A stretch of 64,000 nt of DNA from Candidatus Curtissbacteria bacterium RIFCSPHIGHO2_12_FULL_41_17 (lineage in GTDB: Bacteria; Patescibacteriota; Microgenomatia; Curtissbacterales; GWA2-41-24): contig MFBL01000015.1 in assembly GCA_001774945.1 (NCBI GenBank), forward strand, positions 529 to 64,528, written 5' to 3'. Below the pieces are notes generated by a model. The model was not told the origin of the DNA and did not search any database. It saw only the letters and a list, made by a program, of their open reading frames with translations. Below, piece after piece: positions 2,947 to 40,072 of this stretch (its first letter is position 1; each line of letters opens with the position of its first letter). Both the position numbers and the translations under genes were made by a program.

Positions 2947-4266
2947 ATGGCAATACAGGCAAGAACAGAATTTGCGTCAGCTTTAAATCAGGTTTGCTCC
3001 GAACGGGGAGTCGAACCGGAAGTGGTAATTGATTCTATAAAACAGGCGATTTTAGCGGCTTACCGAAAAGATTATGGCGATCCTGAAGGGATCGATGTCG
3101 ATCTTAATTCGGAAACAGGCGAAGTTGCTCTTTCAAAAGGCAAGAAAAAAATCACGCCTTCAGGTTTTGGTAGAATCGCCGCTCAAACTGCCAAGCAGGT
3201 TATTTTGCAAAGAATTAGGGAAGCCGAAAAAAATGCCATCCTTTCCGAATATTCCTCAAAAATTAATACAGTTGTTTCGGGCATTATCCAGCGAATTTCC
3301 GGCCCCATTATTACTGTTAATTTAGGTAAAACAGAAGGAATTATGCCGCCGCAAGAGCAAGCCCACAACGAAAAGTATGTCCTCAATCAAAGGATGAAAT
3401 TTTACGTTGTGGGTATTAAAGAAGGCGCAAGAGGTGAAGAAATAATAGTTTCAAGAAGCGCCCCCGGGCTTTTAGAGGGACTTTTCAGACAAGAAGTTCC
3501 TGAAATTTCAGCAGGTAGCGTCGAAATCAAGGTAGTGGCCAGAGAAGCCGGTTCCAGATCAAAAATCGCCGTTTATTCTTCTCAACTGGGGGTGGATCCG
3601 GTTGGATCTTGCGTTGGGCAAAAAGGGGTTAGAGTACAAGCGGTAATTAACGAACTTTCAGATGAGAAAATTGACGTTATTGCTTACCAGGAAGACCCAG
3701 TTGAATTTATAAAGGCAGCCCTTTCACCGGCGAAAGAATTAAATGTCACAATAAATGAGAAAGAAAAAACAGCCCTTGTCATTGCCCCTGATGATCAACT
3801 TTCACTGGCAATCGGTAAAGAAGGCCAGAATGTCAGGCTGGCCGCAAAGTTAACAGGTTGCAAAATTGATATTCGGGGTAAAAGCGGAACCCCGAAAGAA
3901 GTTGAGGCTAAAGAAAAAGCGGCACAAGAAGAAGCAAAGAAAGCCTTAGGGGTGATCGAAAAAATTGAGGCCAAGGAAGCGAAAACTCAGCCTGAAGACA
4001 AACAGGCCCAAATCCCAGGTCAACAGCCTCAAACTCCCGTTGATGATCAAGCCAAAGCTAAAGGAAGTAAAGTGGAAGACTCAGACGATGAAAAGGTTAC
4101 CAAGCAGGAAACACCTCAGGGCCAGATTAAAGAAGAATCAGTTACTAAGCCGATCAAAAAAAAGGCAACAGCCAGTCAATCTGAGACAGAAAACCCCACT
4201 CCAGAGCAAAAGGTCAATCCGCCCCGCCAGCTAGCGAACCAGACGGCGAAAAAACTACTTAAATGA
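2947..4266 (+). CDS. nusA: transcription termination/antitermination factor NusA with long K/E/Q-rich C-terminal tail
   Basis: MAIQARTEFASALNQVCSERGV.. N-terminus, with S1 and KH regions (GSCVGQKGVRVQAV, LAIGKEGQNVRLAAKLTG). The ATG at 2947 follows AGAGG. The ORF-track start at 2908 lies inside the upstream repeat array. Confidence 0.9.
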   Translation: MAIQARTEFASALNQVCSERGVEPEVVIDSIKQAILAAYRKDYGDPEGIDVDLNSETGEVALSKGKKKITPSGFGRIAAQTAKQVILQRIREAEKNAILSEYSSKINTVVSGIIQRISGPIITVNLGKTEGIMPPQEQAHNEKYVLNQRMKFYVVGIKEGARGEEIIVSRSAPGLLEGLFRQEVPEISAGSVEIKVVAREAGSRSKIAVYSSQLGVDPVGSCVGQKGVRVQAVINELSDEKIDVIAYQEDPVEFIKAALSPAKELNVTINEKEKTALVIAPDDQLSLAIGKEGQNVRLAAKLTGCKIDIRGKSGTPKEVEAKEKAAQEEAKKALGVIEKIEAKEAKTQPEDKQAQIPGQQPQTPVDDQAKAKGSKVEDSDDEKVTKQETPQGQIKEESVTKPIKKKATASQSETENPTPEQKVNPPRQLANQTAKKLLK

Positions 4267-31149: not shown

Positions 31150-34100
31150 ATGAACGAGCTAATCGATTTTGAATCATTAAAACTGTCGCTTGCTTCACCG
31201 GATGATGTGAAAACCTGGTCATTTGGCGAAGTTACTAAACCTGAAACAATCAATTATAGAACTCTCAAACCGGAAAAGGATGGTCTTTTTGATGAAAGAA
31301 TTTTCGGCCCGACCAAAGATTGGGAATGTTACTGTGGTAAATATAAAAGGATTAGATATCGTGGAATAATTTGTGACAAGTGTGGAGTTGAGGTTACGCA
31401 ATCAAGAGTTCGAAGAGAAAGAATGGGGCATATAACACTTGCTGCTCCAGTAGTCCACAACTGGTTTTTTAAAGGTAGTCCCTCAAAATTGGGACTTCTT
31501 TTAGAAATTTCTCCAAGAAATTTAGATGCTGTTGTTTATTTTGCTTCATATTTAGTAATTGATGTTGATGAGGATAAAAGAAAGCAGGTCGTAAAAAAAC
31601 TCGAAGAAGAGCAAGACAGAAAGAGAAAAGAACAACAAAATATTTTAAAAAGAAAACTTGAAGATGAAGAAAAAGGAGCAAAAAAAGAAGTTGCGGCCAT
31701 TAAATCAAAAGGAAAAGTAAAAGAACATGCCGATCTTAAAATAGAAGAAATCCAACTTACAATGCGTGCTCGACAGGCAAAGATGCGCGAAGAACATGCC
31801 GTTGAAGTTTCTAGACTTGAAGAAATCTACAAGAACATTACAGATATGGTGGCCGCAATTAAGGTAAGAGATCTTTTATCCGAAGAGGAATATTTTAAGC
31901 TTATCGACTATGATGCTGCCGATTTTATAAAAGTTGGAATGGGAGCAGAAGCACTTATGCAAGTTTTGGAGAAAATTGATCTGGCGAAGTTGGCAGTTTC
32001 ACTTAGAGAGGAAATTACCAAAACGACGGGCCAAAGGCACCTGAAAGCGACAAGGAAACTGCGGGTTGTCGAAAGTATGCGCAAGGCCACGATCAGTCCC
32101 AATTGGATGATAATCAGGATATTGCCTGTTTTACCGCCAGATTTAAGACCAATGGTTCAGCTTTCGGGCGGCAGGTTTGCGACCTCAGATTTAAATGATC
32201 TTTACAGAAGGGTGATTAACAGAAATAACAGGTTAAAAAAATTAATTGAATTGGGTGCGCCTGAGATTATTTTAAGGAATGAAAAAAGAATGCTTCAGGA
32301 GTCTGTTGACGCGCTAATTGATTCACAAAGAGTTAAATCAACAAGAGCATCGCAAGAACTGCGGTCACTTTCCGATATGCTTAGAGGTAAACAGGGTAGG
32401 TTTAGACAGAATTTACTTGGAAAACGTGTCGATTATTCTGGAAGATCGGTAATTGTGGTCGGGCCTGAATTAAATTTGAATCAAGCTGGAATCCCCAAGG
32501 AAATGGCCCTGGAGATGTTCAAACCCTTCGTTCTAAGAGAGGTTATAGCCAGAGGATATGCCCCTAACGTGAAAAGCGCTAAACATTTTTTGGAAAGAAG
32601 GAGCGGCGAGGTTTGGGATATTTTAGAAGAAATAACCAAAGGACACCCTATCCTTTTAAACAGGGCTCCAACGCTTCATCGGCTGGGAATTCAAGCTTTC
32701 TACCCGATTCTTATTGAGGGAGATGCTATCAGAATTCATCCGTGCATATGCGCCGGCTTCAACGCGGATTTTGATGGAGATCAGATGGCTGTTCACGTCC
32801 CCCTTTCGGTTAAGGCACAAGAGGAAGCTATTGGTCTTATGATGTCAGCCAGGAATTTACTGCGACCAGCAGACGGTTCTCCAATTACTTTACCAAACAA
32901 AGAAATGGCTTTAGGTATTTATTATTTAACATCCCCTGATCCTAACATCTCGCCTCACGAAGGCATTTTTAAAAGCGAGGATGAAGTGCTGCTTGCCCTA
33001 AAATCCGGCAAGATTTCACAAAGACAGCAGACAAAAGTGATAGTTGGAAAACAAGTAATGGAAACAACCCCCGGCAGAGTTCTATTTAATATCCAAATCC
33101 CCCTTTCAATGCGTTTTATCAATGAGACAATCTCAGCTTCAATTATAAAAAGAATAATATCGAAAGCTATTGATGAAATTGCCGAAGAGCAAGTTGTAGA
33201 GCTGATAGATAGACTAAAAAGCCTTGGGTTTGATGGAGCAACCGCATCGGGTCTTTCAGTTTCGGTTTTTGATTGTGTAATTGTTGATAACAAGCCTCAA
33301 ATTATCCAAAGAGCGGAAAAAGAAGTTGCTCAAATTGAGAAAAATTTTAGTATGGGCCTTATAACAAAAGAAGAATCTAAACGCCTTTCACAGGAAATAT
33401 GGCTTTCAACGACCAATGAACTTGCTGATTTAACTTGGAAAAATTTACCTAAAGATAATTCGATCAAAATTATTTCCGATTCTGGCGGGTCTAGGGCGAC
33501 TGCCGAGCAAATTAAACAGCTTGCGGCAATTAGAGGTCTTGTGACCGATCCTTCGGGGAGAATCGTATCTCTTCCAATTAAATCCAACTTTAGAGAAGGA
33601 CTTTCTGCGTTTGAGTATTTCACCAGTGCCAGAGGAGCAAGAAAAGGTTTGGCAGATCGGGCAATAAAAACTGCCGAATCCGGATATTTGACAAGACGTC
33701 TGGTTGATGTAGCTCATGATGCCATTATAAGAACCGAAGATTGCGAAACGAAAGAAGGAATCGTTATCGCTAAGGAAGACAAGCGACAAGCGGCATTTAT
33801 CATGCGGATTCAGGGGCGGGTGACAACGGAAGACATAACTGCGCAAAAAAGCAAAAAGCAAATAGTTAAAAAAAATACAATAATCACAGAGGAAATTGCC
33901 CGTGAAATAGAAAAAAACGCAATTGTCCAAGTAAAAGTAAGGAGTGTTCTTGCATGTGAGGCTAAATACGGACTCTGCAGTATGTGCTACGGAGTCGACT
34001 TAGTTACCAGGAAGTTGGTAACAGTTGGAACACCGGCTGGAGTGATTGCAGCCCAGTCAATCGGAGAGCCGGGAACACAGCTTACAATGAGGACATTTCA

Positions 34101-34833
34101 CACAGGCGGAATTGTCGGATTAGATATTACCCAAGGTCTGCCGAGGGTAGAGGAACTTTTTGAAGCGCGTACCCCTAAATTTTCAGCTCAAATCACAGAA
34201 ATTGCCGGCAAGGTTAAAATTGAAGAAACGTCAGATGGTAGTGTCGTCAAAGTTAAAAATGCAAACCTTAAACCGCTGGTCGAAAAGGAGTATCTTATTC
34301 CACCTACTTCTGAATTGAAGGTAACAGATGGACAACTTATCGCTGCGGGAGCGCCGCTTTCTGCAGGCTATCTTGATATTAAAGAGATTCTAGCTGTTTC
34401 CGGACTAAGAGAAGCCCAAAAATACCTTATAAGTGAGGCTCAGGAAGTATATGAAACTCAAGGTGTAGCCATTAATGACAAGCATTTTGAGGTTATAGCC
34501 AGAAAAATGAGCGAAAAAGTACGAGTAGAATCATCCGGCGATACAGTTCTATTACCAGGTGAGCTTATAGACAGAAACAGGTTTACGGAAGAGAATGCCA
34601 AGGTTTTAGCCGAAGGAGGAGAACCGGCAACAGCCCAAGTAATAATTTTGGGAATCACCAAGGCCGCACTTTATACCGAAAGTTTCTTATCGGCAGCCTC
34701 ATTTCAAGAAACCACTAGGGTTTTGACTGACGCAGCGATTGAGGGTAAAGTAGACAGGTTGTTAGGATTAAAGGAAAATGTCATAATTGGACGCCTAATT
34801 CCAACTAGTCCTGAAAGAGCAAGGATACAATAG
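31150..34833 (+). CDS. rpoC: DNA-directed RNA polymerase subunit beta'
   Basis: 1227 aa. Zinc motif [23 protein letters not shown], the catalytic [14 protein letters not shown], and the trigger-loop/bridge-helix blocks. Confidence 0.97.
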
Positions 34834-34861
34834 GCGGACAATTATATCAGAGGAGCGTACT

Positions 34862-35344
34862 ATGCCTACTATTAACCAACTTATCAGAAAAGGCAGAAAA
34901 CCAAAAATTAAAAGAGTGAGGGCCACGGCGCTTAGACGTGCCTTTAATTCTCTTAAAAACCGATACGTATACTATCCGGCAAGCCAGAAAAGAGGGGTGT
35001 GTGTGGTTGTCAAAACCATGACTCCCAAAAAACCTAATTCTGCTCTAAGAAAAGTAGCTAGAGTCCGTCTTTCCAATAAGCAGGAAATTACCGCTTATAT
35101 TCCGGGCATTGGTCATGAACTTGCAGAACACTCAGTTGTTTTAATACGGGGTGGTCGCGTCAGAGATCTGCCCGGAGTAAAATATCATGTTATTCGCGGG
35201 AAATATGATACTACTGGAGTAGTTGGCCGAAAGCAAGCAAGATCGCTGTATGGAACCAAAAAATCAGGTGCGGTTACCGGTGCCCAGGCAGCAGCTACAG
35301 TTGGTGCCACCGCAGCCGCAGCGCAGCCACCACCAGAAACTTAA
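34862..35344 (+). CDS. rpsL: 30S ribosomal protein S12 with Ala/Pro-rich C-terminal tail
   Basis: [51 protein letters not shown]. About 25 extra C-terminal residues ([25 protein letters not shown]). Confidence 0.95.
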
Positions 35345-35352
35345 GTATGAAA

Positions 35353-35405
35353 ACTTATCACTTATCACTCATCACTTATCACTTATCACTGCGACCGAAG
35401 GGAGC
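35353..35405 (+). repeat. heptamer array (ACTTATC x5) plus conserved CGACCGAAGGGAGC box upstream of rpsG
   Basis: Units lie at 35353, 35360, 35367 (ACTCATC), 35374 and 35381. The box at 35392-35405 contains the SD. The same architecture occurs upstream of rpsC. Confidence 0.85.
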
Positions 35406-35408
35406 ATC

Positions 35409-35906
35409 ATGCCCAGAGCAGGAAAGGTAGAAAAAAAACAAATTGCTCCGGATCCCCTTTACCAAAGTTCGCTTGTTGCTAAACTAATCAATAAAGTAAT
35501 GGTCAGCGGCAATAAGTCTCTCGCCCAGAGAGTAGTTTATGATGCGCTCGAAAGTTTAAAATCTGGCGGGCAAGATCCAGTCAAAACCCTAGATAAGGCA
35601 GTTGAGAATATTACGCCAAGAATGGAGGTTAGACCAAGAAGGGTTGGCGGTGCATCTTATATGGTTCCCATGGAAGTCAGGGGATCAAGACGGCTTTCAT
35701 TGGCAATTTCATGGCTGGTTAATGCCGCCAGAAGCAGGAAAGCTTCGGACATTACTCCCAAACCTAAGAATAAGCCCTTAATTATTGCCAAGTTGTCCCA
35801 AGAAATACTGCAAGCATCAGAGAATACCGGCAAGGCAGTCGCCAAAAAAGACGAAATGCACCGCATAGCCGAAGCGAACAAAGCTTTCGCCCATTTCAGA
35901 TGGTAA
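35409..35906 (+). CDS. rpsG: 30S ribosomal protein S7
   Basis: MPRAGKVEKKQIAPDPLYQS.LVAKLINKVM..GNKS and ...ANKAFAHFRW. The ATG at 35409 is preceded by AAGGGAGC. The ORF-track start at 35223 lies inside rpsL. Confidence 0.95.
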   Translation: MPRAGKVEKKQIAPDPLYQSSLVAKLINKVMVSGNKSLAQRVVYDALESLKSGGQDPVKTLDKAVENITPRMEVRPRRVGGASYMVPMEVRGSRRLSLAISWLVNAARSRKASDITPKPKNKPLIIAKLSQEILQASENTGKAVAKKDEMHRIAEANKAFAHFRW

Positions 35907-36117
35907 GCCGGAGTTTACACTGAGCTTGTCGAAGTGCGCATTCCCGCTGGTAATGTGCTCAGCCTTGCGGTCCTCGTCCTTCGTTAAACTCAGGACTGCG
36001 GGCCTAAAAGCTTTCGCCCACTTCCGCTGGTAGCGAAATGTGGTTTGCCGCCTTGCGATAGCTCCGCACTACGCGCGTAGTAGCTATCTAAAGGCGTTTG
36101 CACATTTCCGGTGGTAA
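35907..36117 (+). repeat. array of displaced rpsG 3'-end copies separated by GC-rich palindromic inserts
   Basis: KAFAHFRW-stop is re-encoded at 36007-36033 and 36091-36117 with synonymous differences only. A degenerate copy (AHSRW-stop) lies at 35936-35953. Confidence 0.85.
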
Positions 36118-36122
36118 TTTCC

Positions 36123-37067
36123 CTACAACGAGAATAAATCTAGCACTTGCTTTTTTCCTGTCATGGCTAAATCAAATATCTTTTCCCGATCTTGGGAAAT
36201 TCTTGAGATGGGCATCTCGGAAGGAGCAATAATCCCAATATTTATTGAATCTCCATGCAATCCAATTAGCTCTGCCGCTCGCGAATATTGTTTATGTCTT
36301 GCTAACATAGCAGTTCTAAATTCGGAGGAAAACTTACGCATATATACACTTGTAAGTAAACGTTCTAATAAACTGGCCCCATTTGCTCGCTCGCCTACAG
36401 TATTATTCAAAACCACCAATATATCTGTACACCCTTCCTGTATTGCTAAATCGATTGGAATACCATTCCCTATAGAACCATCACTGTACTTTTTTCCATT
36501 AATACTTATGGTACGGTTATAAACAATAGGAAATGCCGAGGAAGCGATGACTACTTTGACAATATCACACTCCTCTTTCACATCTATAAACTCACTTTTG
36601 CCCGTTTGGGCATCCGTAACGACAATAAAAAAACTCGAACGGGATGACCTAATTGTTTCCTGATCAAGCGGTTTTGTCTTTCGCATTATGTGTTCAGCAT
36701 AATCAAGGTCTAAAACACGCCTTAGACGCCTAACATCGATGAATCTTCTGTCCACTAAATCTTCATGCCAAAGCGAAGCTCCTAACTCTGTCTGTTTAGC
36801 AAGAAAATAAGCAAGGTCAGCAGCCCCAGACGAAACACCGACAACAACATCAAAAGTGTCATGGAAACCCAATTGTTCTAGGCCAACAAGTACTCCGGCA
36901 CCAAATGCTCCACGCACCCCACCGCCACCCATTACTAATGCGGTTTTAATCCTCTCGTGTGTATTGTCACCTTGATCAAGCAGTCTCTTTTTCTCAAGTA
37001 AATTTCTCACGAGCGTTGAATTTCTCGCTGATTCACCTTCTAAAACTTTGGAGCGTAATCTTTCCAT
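36123..37067 (-). CDS. patatin-like phospholipase
   Basis: Oxyanion motif GGGGVRGAFGAGVL, nucleophile elbow GVSSGA (GxSxG), and the catalytic Asp context DGSIGNGIP. Confidence 0.85.
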   Translation of the reverse strand: MERLRSKVLEGESARNSTLVRNLLEKKRLLDQGDNTHERIKTALVMGGGGVRGAFGAGVLVGLEQLGFHDTFDVVVGVSSGAADLAYFLAKQTELGASLWHEDLVDRRFIDVRRLRRVLDLDYAEHIMRKTKPLDQETIRSSRSSFFIVVTDAQTGKSEFIDVKEECDIVKVVIASSAFPIVYNRTISINGKKYSDGSIGNGIPIDLAIQEGCTDILVVLNNTVGERANGASLLERLLTSVYMRKFSSEFRTAMLARHKQYSRAAELIGLHGDSINIGIIAPSEMPISRISQDREKIFDLAMTGKKQVLDLFSL

Positions 37068-37287
37068 GGCTAAAATTGTAGCAAAAATAGTTCTTTAAGA
37101 GAAAAATCTTCTCTCTTGCATACTCATTTAACTTAAGATATAATTCCCGACTAGTTTGTACTTATCTGCCGGTCTTCGACCCTGAGGGCTCAGACCCGAA
37201 TGGGCAGGCAGGCGCCTGTCAAACGCCTAATTTAGCTTCCGCCTGGCTAAATCCAAAGAAGAATTTTTATATTTGGGAAATGATATA

Positions 37288-37316
37288 TTGACTTTTGGCA
37301 GGGTTTTATTGATAAA
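37288..37316 (+). promoter_or_regulatory. candidate promoter TTGACT-17-GATAAA
   Basis: TTGACT at 37288-37293, a 17-nt spacer, and GATAAA at 37311-37316, upstream of the ORF at 37328. Confidence 0.3.
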
Positions 37317-37327
37317 AGAGTAAGATC

Positions 37328-37606
37328 ATGAAAATAATTTCATTATCAAAGGCACAAAAACTGAAAAGCCTTAGAAAAAAACTCACGGAGCTTGAGGAAG
37401 TTAAGCTAAAAGAGGCTTTGGCTAAGTATGGGGAAGCCTACCAGGAGTCAGGAGCGGCCTGGCAGGAAAATGCCGCCTGGGAGCTGGCAGACGAAGAAGT
37501 GTCGGTTATTCGGGCAATGATTTCGGAAATAAAAAGAGAAATCACCGGTTTGGAACATCCTCTTCCTACTACTTCCATCCCGCTCACTATTAAAAAACAA
37601 AAATAA
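37328..37606 (+). CDS. small coiled-coil protein (hypothetical)
   Basis: 92-aa ORF of helical, charged sequence. No family recognised. Confidence 0.45.
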   Translation: MKIISLSKAQKLKSLRKKLTELEEVKLKEALAKYGEAYQESGAAWQENAAWELADEEVSVIRAMISEIKREITGLEHPLPTTSIPLTIKKQK

Positions 37607-37642
37607 TCCAAATTAGAAAAATATATGACGCAAACTGCTGAT

Positions 37643-37791
37643 CAATTTATTTTCGCTTCGCGAAAACCGTGGATTATTAATCCTCGGATGAAGCGAAGGG
37701 AAAACATACTTCCAAGGAAGTTTGGAGCCTAGACCAAAGACGAATGATATGATAGGTGAAAACCGAGGGTTCTTAACTCTCGGAAGTTTAT
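37643..37791 (+). repeat. ~150-nt multi-hairpin intergenic repeat, diverged copy C
   Basis: Collinear with copy B, with the same stem positions but different stem sequences (TTCGCTTC/GAAGCGAA, CCGTGGATT/AATCCTCGG, ACTTCC/GGAAGT, CCGAGGGTT/AACTCTCGG). The terminal CGGAAGTTTAT is identical. Confidence 0.7.
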
Positions 37792-37833
37792 TTTGCAACA
37801 CAAAAAGACATATTTAGCTTGGAGGAAAAAATA

Positions 37834-39975
37834 ATGGCCGAAAAACAAGCCAGACTTTATTCGCTGGACAGAATAAGAAATATAGGCATCATTGCTCATA
37901 TCGACGCGGGAAAAACGACCACTACCGAGAGAATCCTTTTTTACACAGGTAGGACCTATAAACTCGGAAATATCGATGAAGGCACCACCGTTACCGACTG
38001 GATGGCTCAGGAAAAAGAAAGGGGAATTACGATTGTATCGGCTGCCGTAACAACATTTTGGAAACCCAAAGATGGCCCGTTTGCCAACATTGACACACGT
38101 ATAAACATTATTGACACCCCGGGGCATGTCGATTTTACTGCCGAGGTTGAAAGATCACTGCGTGTTCTAGATGGAGGAGTCACCGTTCTTGATGCAGAAG
38201 AGGGGGTCCAGTCACAATCGGAAACAGTCTGGCGCCAAGCCGACAAATATAAAGTTCCCCGTATTTGTTTCGTTAATAAGATGGATAAAATCGGCGCAGA
38301 TTTTTTCGCAACGCTCTCCTCGATCCGCAAAAAATTACAGGCACCGGCAGTTGCCTACAATTTACCAATCGGCAAGGAAAATGATTTTAAGGGAGTTATC
38401 GATTTACTAACACAAAAGGCCTATATTTGGGAAGAAGAGGCTGTCAAAAAAGGAGGAATGGATTTTGTCAAGGTACCCATCCCAAGTGAATTGCTTGCTG
38501 AAACCGAAAAACATAGAGCCCACTTAATTGAAAAAATTGCAGAATGTGACGATAGTCTTGTGGAAAAATACCTTAAGGGTGAAGAATTGGGAATAGACGA
38601 ACTTAAATCAGCACTTCGACGTGCAGTCATCGAATATAAAATAGTTCCCGTGCTTGCAGGTTCCAGTCTACGCAATAAAGGTGTTCAAATGCTTCTTGAC
38701 GCAACTGTAGAATACTTACCTTCTCCTTTAGATATAGAAACGGTAGAGGGTATTAATCCTAAAACAGGTGAGAAGGAGATCCGCAAACAAGTAGTCGAAG
38801 CTCCATTTTGTGCCTTGGCATTTAAAGTCCAGATCGATCCGCATGTCGGTAAATTAAATTTCATCAGAATTTATTCGGGAACACTAAAATCCGGTACTTC
38901 TGTTTTGAATACGACAAAAAGGGAACATGAAAGAGTCGGCAGAATTTTACTAATGCATGCCAATACCAGAGAAGAGATTGCCGAAGCATACGCAGGAGAA
39001 ATTGTGGCAGTTGTCGGACTTAAATCAACCACCACAGGAGACACGCTCTGCGCTGAAAATTCTCCGATTATTTTAGAATCGATTTCGTTTCCGGACCCGG
39101 TCATTTCACTGGCAATTGAGCCAAGTACAAAGGCTGATCAGGAGAAACTTGGTTACGCTTTGGGCCGGCTTTCCGAGGAAGATCCGACGTTTAAGATTAA
39201 AGGTGATCCGGAAACCGGGCAAACAATTATTTCCGGAATGGGAGAACTGCATCTGGAAATCCTGGTTGACAGAATGAAGAGAGAGTTTGCAGTCGCTGCC
39301 AAAGTCGGCAGTCCGCAAGTTGCTTACAAGGAAACCATTAGAGAAACAGGCAGAGGTGAAGGTAAATATATTCGGCAGTCCGGTGGCAGAGGCCAATACG
39401 GGCACTGTTTTTTGAGGGTTGAGCCTAATCCTCGCGGTGAGGGTTATCAATTCGTTTCCGAGATTAGAGGTGGCGCTATTCCGCAAGAGTTTATTTCCTC
39501 AGTAGAAAAAGGAGTTCGCGAAAAAATGGAAACCGGGGTTTTAGCTGGATATCCGATGGTCGATATAAAGGTAGCAGTTTATGATGGTACTTATCATGAC
39601 GTTGACTCTTCCGATATTGCTTTTAAAATCGCCGGCTCTCTTGCTTTGGAAGAAGCCGTCAAAAATGCCAGTCTTGCGCTTTTGGAACCGATCATGAAAG
39701 TGGAAGTGACCATTCCCGAAGAATTCATGGGTGATGTAATTGGGGATTTATCTGCCAAGCGTGCTCAAATACTTTCAAGCGAACATCGGGCAAACAGCGT
39801 GATTATTACAGCCCTTGTGCCGCTTGCAGAGATGTCCGGCTATGTTACAACTCTTAGGTCTATGACTCAAGGGAGAGGATCAGCATATATGGAACCGTCA
39901 CATTACGAAGAAGTTCCCCAGAGTATAGCAGACAAAATCGTAGCAAGGGCCAAAGGTGAGGTAAAAGAAAGTTAG
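37834..39975 (+). CDS. fusA: elongation factor G
   Basis: [40 protein letters not shown]. The ATG at 37834 is preceded by GGAGG. The ORF-track TTG at 37819 would include the SD. Confidence 0.95.
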
Positions 39976-40024
39976 TAAAGAGTTTACCATGAACGAAGTC
40001 GCGTCAGACGCGACGAAGTGAAGG

Positions 40025-40072
40025 GCCGATAAAATAGTCGCAAAGGTTAAGGGTGAAACTAACCAAAGCTGA
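40025..40072 (+). repeat. displaced second copy of the fusA 3' end
   Basis: Encodes ADKIVAKVKGETNQS-stop, compared with the genuine end [15 protein letters not shown]-stop at 39928-39975. Confidence 0.8.

Follow-up and report, generated by a model that had tools for sequence, protein, structure and literature searches.

The present analysis deals with the 3' end of rpsG, the gene coding for ribosomal protein S7, in Candidatus Curtissbacteria bacterium RIFCSPHIGHO2_12_FULL_41_17, and with the short repeated segments that follow this gene. The window, by which we mean the whole stretch of DNA that was analysed, consists of 64,000 nucleotides (nt) of contig MFBL01000015.1 (assembly GCA_001774945.1, positions 529 to 64,528); contigs identical to it are also present in the assemblies GCA_001774785 and GCA_001774845, and the closest relatives of its S7 protein are those of Curtissbacteria. 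At the locus, the genes are arranged in the order rpoB, rpoC, rpsL, rpsG, a convergent patatin gene, a 92-aa open reading frame (ORF) resembling the N-terminal part of GreA, fusA, and tuf. The rpsG gene terminates with AAAGCTTTCGCCCATTTCAGATGGTAA (KAFAHFRW-stop), and three further copies of this end, which bound three short spacers, follow before the patatin gene, whose own stop codon lies 5 nt past the last copy (Table 1). The functional end is referred to as E0, the two complete displaced copies as c2 and c3, and the spacers as class C, A1, and A2, while loci used for comparison are cited by their numbers (L011, L012, etc.).

Table 1. Positions, in the window, of the rpsG array and of the other features discussed.
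Feature	Position	Strand	Basis
rpsG (ribosomal protein S7, 165 aa), whose end is repeated downstream	35409..35906	+	ORF list; Pfam Ribosomal_S7 on identical product
Start of the tract differing between same-species haplotypes, recombination boundary in rpsG, 13 nt before the repeated segment	35867..35879	+	L107/L104 comparison
E0, functional gene end, KAFAHFRW + TAA	35880..35906	+	sequence and degenerate-pattern search
Class C spacer, 29 nt, GCCGGAGTTTACACTGAGCTTGTCGAAGT, not palindromic	35907..35935	+	motif AGTTTAC..GAAGTG at 35912-35936; fold z = +0.4
Truncated displaced rpsG end, 18 nt, GCGCATTCCCGCTGGTAA, read as GCG CAT TCC CGC TGG TAA (AHSRW-stop)	35936..35953	+	sequence
Spacer A1, 53 nt: TGTGC..GCCTT (reverse complement of gene-end parts), then GCG, hairpin, CTA	35954..36006	+	sequence, folding
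c2, complete displaced rpsG end, KAFAHFRW + TAG	36007..36033	+	degenerate-pattern search
Spacer A2, 57 nt: CGAAATGTGGTTTGCCGCCTT (inverted gene-end copy), then GCG, hairpin GATAGCT..AGCTATC, CTA	36034..36090	+	inverted repeat I4
c3, most distal displaced rpsG end, KAFAHFRW + TAA	36091..36117	+	degenerate-pattern search
Patatin-like phospholipase gene, convergent, not an array component	36123..37067	-	Pfam Patatin, 2.7e-20
fusA functional end (14 aa + TAG)	39931..39975	+	ORF-end scan
Post-fusA spacer, 52 nt, class C motif (GAGTTTACCATGAAC..GAAGTG)	39976..40027	+	motif search
Displaced fusA end, 14 codons + stop, DKIVAKVKGETNQS + TGA	40028..40072	+	ORF-end scan

The functional end and its copies lie at all four positions at which the initial annotation, made from the sequence alone, had placed them. 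The copy that it had described as degenerate is present as well, but is a truncated copy of 18 nt with one non-synonymous change rather than a badly decayed full copy. It aligns to the functional end of L042, more exactly to its 3' part, which is followed there by the same A1 spacer. A chance origin of the copies is ruled out on two grounds. A degenerate back-translation pattern for KAFAHFRW-stop has three matches in the 64 kb of the window and none in 100 shuffles. Besides, E0 and c2 differ at 4 nt, E0 and c3 at 6 nt, and c2 and c3 at 7 nt, all of these differences being synonymous (as had been claimed for the first two pairs), while only 17% of single substitutions in the gene end would be; in a simulation of random substitution, such an all-synonymous outcome has a probability of 3.8e-4 for E0/c2, 2e-5 for E0/c3, and 1e-5 for c2/c3. 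An assembly artefact was likewise ruled out by the identity of the 216-nt array across at least ten independent assemblies: the segment that begins with rpsG and extends to the start of fusA (35409-37819) is the same in ten contigs (ENA, NCBI, JGI), which do carry single-nucleotide polymorphisms (SNPs) farther upstream. Readthrough translation of the copies was rejected as well, c2 and c3 being out of the rpsG frame.

No identical core is common to the copies. E0 and c2 have their first 14 nt in common, whereas c3 differs from both at each third position of this stretch. The 27-mer of c2 is identical to a displaced copy in L073, and L067 and L081 have the 24 coding nt of c3 in their functional end. 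The placement of the copies on a nucleotide tree, as the initial annotation had suggested, is precluded by their length of 27 nt; in a nearest-neighbour search, functional or displaced ends of other species match them exactly or nearly so, without lineage assignment. More generally, the codon choices of displaced copies resemble a random sample of functional ends, which rules out a fixed, element-borne sequence as their source.

Across loci, the repeating unit consists of the last six to nine codons of rpsG with the stop codon, followed by a short spacer of 29-107 nt. Usually, this spacer is a hairpin, and its 5' part is reverse-complementary to the preceding gene end; in most units, this inverted copy begins 0-4 nt past the stop codon, and the loop between gene end and inverted copy varies from 7 to 20 nt. 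Examples are the units CACTTTCG-TTGGTAA-CGAAAGTG on to AGCAAAAGCTTT in L022 and GCATTTGCCCA..TGGGCAAATGC in L036. The inverted copy fits the upstream gene end better in 35 units and the downstream one in 11, with 12 ties, and it tracks the third-position variants of the upstream end (GCGCA/TGCGC, GCTCA/TGAGC, GCACA/TGTGC), up to perfect stems of 11 bp in L036 and L048; it can pair with either adjacent gene-end copy. In class A spacers, the inverted copy ends with GCYTT and is followed by GCG, by a hairpin that is conserved in its basal stem and hypervariable at its apex, by CTA, and by the next gene end, GCG and CTA forming a 2-nt mismatch bubble in an otherwise conserved architecture. The claim of palindromic inserts between all copies holds for two of the three spacers in the window: A2 and the start of c3 form a long hairpin (-15 kcal/mol, z = -2.2), which is the only strong one in the array, A1 folds modestly (z = -0.7), and the first spacer is not palindromic. 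Members of the A2 family occur in L011, L028, L038, L055, and L107, and a homologue of the class C spacer, with an internal duplication, in L011. A hairpin much like the A1 core (TGCGGTCCTCGTC..GACTGCGGGCCTAAAA) was also seen in L012 (4958-5004), about 470 nt past rpsG in the leader of the GreA-like ORF, with no adjoining gene-end copy.

The initial annotation had also raised the alternative of a generic repeat scattered over many unrelated loci, and this does not fit the window, where neither A1 nor A2 has any further copy. Dispersed palindromes of the REP (repetitive extragenic palindrome) or MITE (miniature inverted-repeat transposable element) type were rejected on the same 64 kb: the class C motif AGTTTAC..GAAGTG occurs there exactly twice (0.08 expected), just past the stop codons of rpsG and fusA, and each time precedes a copy of the end of that gene. 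A CRISPR (clustered regularly interspaced short palindromic repeats) array was dismissed as well, the repeats differing at 4-7 of 27 nt and being coding ends, and the spacers being hairpin families common to several species; no cas domain was detected among the window ORFs scanned.

The way in which the inverted copy follows the variants of its own gene end, the perfect stems, its ability to pair with either neighbouring copy, and the probable position of rpsG as the last gene of its transcription unit would suit a structure kept for an RNA role, in which hairpins of the 3' untranslated region (UTR) act in transcript stabilisation or termination, or monitor translation of the gene end through alternative pairing of the inverted copy with the end upstream or downstream of it. 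The copies would then be synonymous only from the need to pair with a partner that also pairs with the coding sequence. We regard such a role as an improbable origin of the array. It is patchy, 14 of 22 species being devoid of it, its copy number varies within species, and parts of the gene end that are never paired, the stop codon included, are retained in displaced copies. In addition, the z-score for folding of the whole array is only -2, neither an intrinsic terminator nor a terminator-like U tract was found in the array, and Rfam gave nothing relevant at E values up to 10 for the window region and nothing at E values up to 1 for six other loci. The complementarity itself could arise neutrally, by template-switch correction of quasi-palindromes. 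The hairpins may nevertheless act as 3'-UTR structures.

The array is not a peculiarity of one genome. Among 22 Curtissbacteria species, extra rpsG ends are present in eight, window included, which means that seven of the 21 other species-level genomes carry one or two of them (L011, L012, L015, L021, L022, L024, and L028). A scan of metagenomes for the succession of gene end, 27-87 nt, and gene end retrieved 53 further loci, many of them from other Microgenomates-like S7 lineages. About twenty of these loci belong to S7 lineages ending with KAFAHYRW, mostly to a single lineage whose S7 starts with MGRKKK and is as distant from the S7 of the window as is the E. coli protein (46% against 48%); the units of this distant lineage have an analogous architecture and unrelated spacer sequences.

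Nor is the pattern specific to the S7 gene, at which the initial annotation had described it. A neutral scan for copied gene ends, applied to 772 ORF ends across all fetched loci, revealed it at two more genes, namely rpoC and fusA. In four other Curtissbacteria species (L015, at 3272-3353, L016, L025, and L073), the last 15-18 codons of rpoC are copied past a spacer of 37-74 nt, with 11-18 of 45 nt and at most two amino acids changed; the rpoC gene of the window is not followed by such a displaced copy. Copies of the fusA end were found in the window and in L027, with homologous spacers downstream of the gene. In the window, the post-fusA spacer holds a small nested hairpin between direct repeats of ACGAAGT, and the displaced fusA end is an older, decaying fossil, since it differs from the functional one at 16 of 45 nt and 5 of 14 amino acids. 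Apart from rpsG and fusA, no gene end of the window is copied. In L015 and L073, a ..CGAAGTG motif adjoins the displaced copy of the rpoC end as well.

Comparison of related loci reveals how units are gained, exchanged, and shuffled. With respect to L024, L022, and L071, L055 contains a clean 76-nt insertion between an Asn and a Lys codon, which comprises a differently coded gene end and an A2-type spacer, the inverted copy in the latter corresponding to the new end. Behind the insert, the former end persists, now with an Ala-to-Asp change, and two extra SNPs are located 9 and 28 nt upstream of the insertion. This polymorphism therefore indicates that the arriving unit is a gene end with its spacer, landing before the resident end. 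In rpoC, L015 and L073 are about 22% different over 3 kb and yet differ at only 4 of 91 nt over the last 18 codons and the spacer, while 12 differences, nearly all synonymous, separate the 45 nt of their displaced copies. In the same line, the first spacers of L072 and L080 are 98% identical and their first gene ends identical, against 89% identity for the gene; L039 and L015 share 93% of the spacer against 61% of the gene (ungapped, last 150 nt); and the A1 block of the window is about 90-92% identical to that of L042, against 76% for rpsG. Judged from these identities, the units appear to be younger than their host lineages. Their order is E0-C-tail-A1-c2-A2-c3 in the window and E0-A2-E1-C-tail in L011, the closest species, and since the same families (A2 and C) are ordered differently, they were acquired independently.

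Within species, unit numbers and combinations also vary. L036, L048, L054, and L068 do not differ at all in the 146 nt upstream of the repeat, and they carry one or two units in different combinations, which points to crossover between copies; single unequal crossovers can explain this variation. All differences between L059 and L082 fall on sites at which their two copies are unlike, consistent with patchy gene conversion. For the species of the window, L107 coincides with the window at every one of 2296 nt (33571-35866) and differs from position 35867 on, first at three synonymous sites before the repeat (35867, 35873, and 35879) and then at five sites within it. Its array contains one A2-type unit, unlike that of the window, with unrelated DNA thereafter. 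This tail matches L011, with one difference in 39 nt and 88% identity across the array, whereas the rpsG genes of L011 and the window are only 78% identical. L104, a contig of 37.5 kb that stems from another sample, stops exactly at 35866, and L108 departs from the window at 35700. These mosaics suggest that the 3' part of rpsG and the array have been exchanged between lineages, with left breakpoints at variable points inside the gene; such variable breakpoints (35700, 35867) therefore fit homologous recombination better than a fixed-site recombinase. Several metagenome contigs of the window species were further seen to end inside rpsG or just before the array (at 35866, and also at 35433, 35783, and 35813), which is consistent with coexisting haplotypes or with repeats breaking the assembly graph.

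Plain tandem arrays of identical or near-identical copies are found in L050, L053, L061, L064, and L086, and E0 equals E1 in L011. Such arrays, together with the direct-inverted-direct layout, which is that of a template-switching product, and with the patchy conversion that explains the differences between close strains (L059 vs L082), could speak for a purely local process, in which tandem duplication by replication slippage or template switching is followed by divergence in place, the coding capacity being kept by gene conversion with the working copy. It is very unlikely that this process alone gave rise to the arrays, and as sole explanation it is contradicted by the units being more alike between species than the genes are. 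It also leaves unexplained the new, differently coded end of L055 and the mosaic of L107, and non-synonymous changes are almost lacking between copies that diverge at as many as 8 of about 10 synonymous sites. Local duplication may, however, be the origin of the unit families.

Taken together, we lean towards reading the array as a stack of displaced "fossil" rpsG ends in the 3' untranslated region, added by recombination anchored in the gene end. The observations on which this reading builds are the anatomy of the array, the synonymous-only differences, the sharing of units between species, the insertion polymorphisms, and the mosaic haplotypes. DNA of another lineage would recombine in, with the left crossover in the highly conserved last codons of the gene and the right crossover in a gene-end copy; the latter would be the sole downstream sequence still common to diverged lineages, because intergenic DNA is not conserved between them. 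By pairing of the donor's displaced copy with the recipient's working end, one or more units could be added on the gene-proximal side, the incoming DNA supplying a working end and a spacer and the resident end being shifted downstream unchanged. Each copy would thus have been a working end in some lineage before its displacement, and the copies would differ only synonymously because each was functional until displaced. Afterwards, displaced copies may decay slowly, or be shuffled and lost via unequal crossover between copies; c3 would then be the oldest copy of the window. No dedicated enzyme would be needed, since the conserved gene ends flank the spacer and would render it portable by ordinary RecA-type recombination; RecA, RecX, and RuvX are encoded in the window. 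For the first duplication in each family, template switching is a candidate (direct-inverted-direct layout, identical copies as in L011, L040, and L053). The growth direction, the recombination pathway, and the absence of function of the fossils are what we infer within this model, which accounts for displaced copies resembling a random sample of functional ends, for clearly decayed copies being mostly distal (L040, L041, L057, L066, L072, and L080), for the affected genes being the most conserved ones of the region, and for units being devoid of an accompanying enzyme gene.

Several points weigh against recombination anchored in gene ends. RecA-type recombination across arms of 27-54 nt with many third-position mismatches should be very inefficient. 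In two comparisons (L055, and L015/L073 for rpoC), the shared tract starts at or very near the 5' edge of the repeat, which also suits a site-specific process. Besides, the model leaves unexplained the regular inverted gene-end copy at the spacer start, the conserved GCG..CTA flanks of class A spacers, and the ..CGAAGTG motif abutting displaced copies at three different genes, nor does it account for the origin of the first duplication in each family. The decayed copy of the window is the second and not the last one, which needs the extra assumption of a class C unit entering inside a resident copy. Finally, L107 is a single short contig that might still be a chimeric assembly, though the rpsG genes of L011 and the window have no exact word of more than 20 nt in common.

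A rival reading takes the units as dedicated protein-free mobile cassettes, made of a gene end, an inverted copy, and a hairpin, and inserted at the 5' edge of the resident end by an enzyme acting in trans. Candidates for this enzyme are a recombinase acting on folded single strands (as for integron attC sites or CTX-phage attP), a Y1/HUH enzyme, and a homing endonuclease whose cut is mended from an allele that bears a cassette; recognition or guidance would fall to the inverted copy, and thanks to the recoded end the gene would stay intact or escape cleavage. The clean 76-nt insertion of L055 at a codon boundary and the shared rpoC tract starting exactly at the edge of the repeated segment are in line with this proposal, as are the conserved architecture (inverted copy, 2-nt GCG/CTA bubble, basal stem, hypervariable apex), the unit families common to species and even to genes (class C at rpsG and fusA), the analogous architecture with unrelated spacers in a distant S7 lineage, and the same arrangement of inserted and displaced C-termini in endonuclease elements of fungal mitochondria (PMC3630166). 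The target sequences of rpoC, rpsG, and fusA are, however, unrelated, the breakpoints of the haplotypes are variable and upstream of the repeat, and a loop varying between 7 and 20 nt is ill-suited to a fixed recombinase core. We therefore consider cassettes rather unlikely, all the more so as the search for their enzyme gave no candidate among the 22 window ORFs scanned against Pfam, no recombinase in or next to the array, no ORF for an endonuclease between the copies at any of the about 80 loci, and, within 4 kb of any of them, no distant gene-end copies delimiting a larger element. It is likewise rather unlikely, if worth stating, that the units represent an unrecognised type of minimal protein-free cassettes of 50-110 nt, homing into the last codons of ultra-conserved genes (rpoC, rpsG, and fusA) with a re-coded end and a guiding inverted copy, and spreading in the candidate phyla radiation (CPR) with analogues in at least one other lineage.

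A gene resembling a REP-associated tyrosine transposase (RAYT) was noticed in L022 (5240-5990; also in L023, L024, L055, and L071), with a score of 73.8 bits for a cut-off of 80. The gene, with the rpsG array on one side and the GreA-like ORF on the other, is flanked by the inverted repeats GGGACGGTCCT..AGGACCGTCCC. As mobiliser of the units, this gene was rejected: its terminal repeats (GGGACGGTCC..) are found only around the gene itself, and a match of 9 nt to A1 does not exceed chance. That the RAYT-like gene beside the L022-L024 arrays has unrelated terminal repeats of its own, and is itself absent elsewhere, counts against the cassettes as well. In three related genomes, different unannotatable ORFs (149, 195, and 218 aa) are found right behind the last rpsG-end copy; the ORFs behind the L022-L024 arrays have no match in Pfam or PADLOC.

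The initial annotation had proposed tandem accretion at an integration hotspot, as for genomic islands at the 3' ends of tRNA and tmRNA genes. Tandem accretion stands to the extent that the copies are serial, that each resembles a once-functional end of a different source, and that the units are shared between species and horizontal, but the analogy with integrase-driven islands does not hold. As an explanation of the array, this analogy would imply integrase-mediated accretion at an attachment site in the rpsG 3' end, followed by the near-total loss of the element bodies. Remnants of this kind would resemble the cis-mobilizable elements (CIMEs) that, like integrative and conjugative elements (ICEs) and integrative and mobilizable elements (IMEs), have been documented to accrete at the 3' ends of genes (PMC5704250). 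This scenario is highly improbable: no integrase is encoded nearby, the copies have no identical core, the left edge of the exchanged DNA is variable, the units of 29-57 nt are conserved hairpin families and not random remnants of deletion, and variable genes follow the last copy without a further copy bounding them. Moreover, a free copy of the site was found neither on phages or plasmids nor on viral contigs: phages gave no match to it, plasmid matches are to rpsG itself only, and the four hits on viral contigs are ordinary rpsG genes.

Among described systems, the closest anatomy appears to be that of the mobile ORFs (mORFs) of fungal mitochondria (Allomyces atp6; Glomus atp6, atp9, cox2, and nad3), which carry a foreign C-terminal gene segment (PMC3630166). 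As in the array, the in-frame foreign C-terminus becomes the working end while the native one is displaced downstream and unexpressed, the copies differ mainly synonymously, and a horizontal origin is inferred (PMC3630166). An inserted foreign C-terminus with a displaced native one is what was observed here in L055 vs L024 and in the L107 mosaic with its L011-like tail. However, a LAGLIDADG or GIY-YIG endonuclease gene between the copies drives the mobility of mORFs, whereas only a spacer of 29-57 nt is present in the array, which, unlike mORFs, consists of several stacked units and is found in a bacterial host. A second parallel is the tandem accretion of ICEs, IMEs, and CIMEs at the 3' ends of tRNA and protein genes, where the incoming element restores the gene end (PMC5704250). 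In contrast to these elements, with their kilobase-sized units, an integrase encoded now or formerly, and an identical core, the array has units of less than 60 nt, no integrase, no identical core, and variable breakpoints.

Neither an rpsG attachment site nor gene-free stacked gene-end units in bacteria were found in the literature searched, whose limited coverage makes this no proof of absence. In the minimal mobile elements of Neisseria, variable DNA between conserved genes is swapped by ordinary recombination in the conserved flanks, and in homology-facilitated illegitimate recombination after DNA uptake, homology on one side can be enough for the addition of foreign DNA. Neither of them is known to leave re-coded gene ends stacked in order, or hairpins that complement a gene end. 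In integron arrays, new units enter next to a fixed site and older ones are pushed outward; each unit closes with an imperfect palindrome in which the basal boxes are conserved, a bubble is left unpaired, and the apex varies, and the unit that comes next provides, with its start, the rest of the stem. The layout of the rpsG array appears alike, but its cargo is the end of a housekeeping gene only and its targets are coding sequences of three genes. The array hairpins have a layout analogous to attC and a different sequence (GCCTT-GCG..CTA-AAGGC vs the R/L boxes RYYYAAC/GTTRRRY), and neither an integron integrase (looked for in the scanned part of the window) nor attI was found. The resemblance to integrons may be taken as a lead only.

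The pattern itself is robust, reproducible, and widespread, so that its descriptive core is well supported, while the molecular mechanism is what we infer from it. If recombination anchored in gene ends is indeed at work, the stacks would be a layered record of successive recombination between lineages at the most conserved genes of uncultivated CPR bacteria, for which gene flow is otherwise hard to document. A short insert between two conserved gene-end copies would thereby gain portable homology arms and spread between diverged species by ordinary recombination, which would blur the boundary between mobile element and passive passenger. If, on the other hand, a dedicated hairpin-guided mechanism were true, it would represent a new type of site-directed DNA insertion. 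In practical terms, the repeats would explain contig breaks at rpsG in metagenome assemblies, and the last codons of the markers rpsG, rpoC, and fusA are risky in phylogeny unless mosaicism is checked.

Regarding the neighbourhood, rpsG and fusA are not adjacent, the patatin gene, the small GreA-like ORF, and a promoter-like motif intervening between them. The patatin gene belongs to a variable segment extending from rpsG to the GreA-like ORF, in which other Curtissbacteria have other genes or none; models of CBASS-type (cyclic oligonucleotide-based anti-phage signalling system) and anti-phage phospholipase effectors match it weakly, far under their cut-offs. The GreA-like ORF (37328-37606, plus strand; 82-99 aa in relatives) displays weak similarity to the N-terminal coiled coil of GreA and is found between rpsG and fusA in nearly all Curtissbacteria examined. 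The promoter-like motif (TG)ATATAATTCCCGCTTAG at 37138-37160 is conserved at equivalent positions in L012-L029, upstream of the GreA-like ORF and fusA in most species; its sequence and position suggest that fusA may have its own promoter and that rpsG closes its transcription unit. Upstream of rpsG, the heptamer ACTTATC is repeated 5.4 times at 35353-35390, between rpsL and rpsG, and comparable ACTTATA repeats precede rpsL in L025. Finally, ribosomal protein S12 has an unusual Ala/Gly/Pro-rich C-terminal extension (35230-35344), which overlaps a CCGCAG hexamer repeat at 35310-35328.

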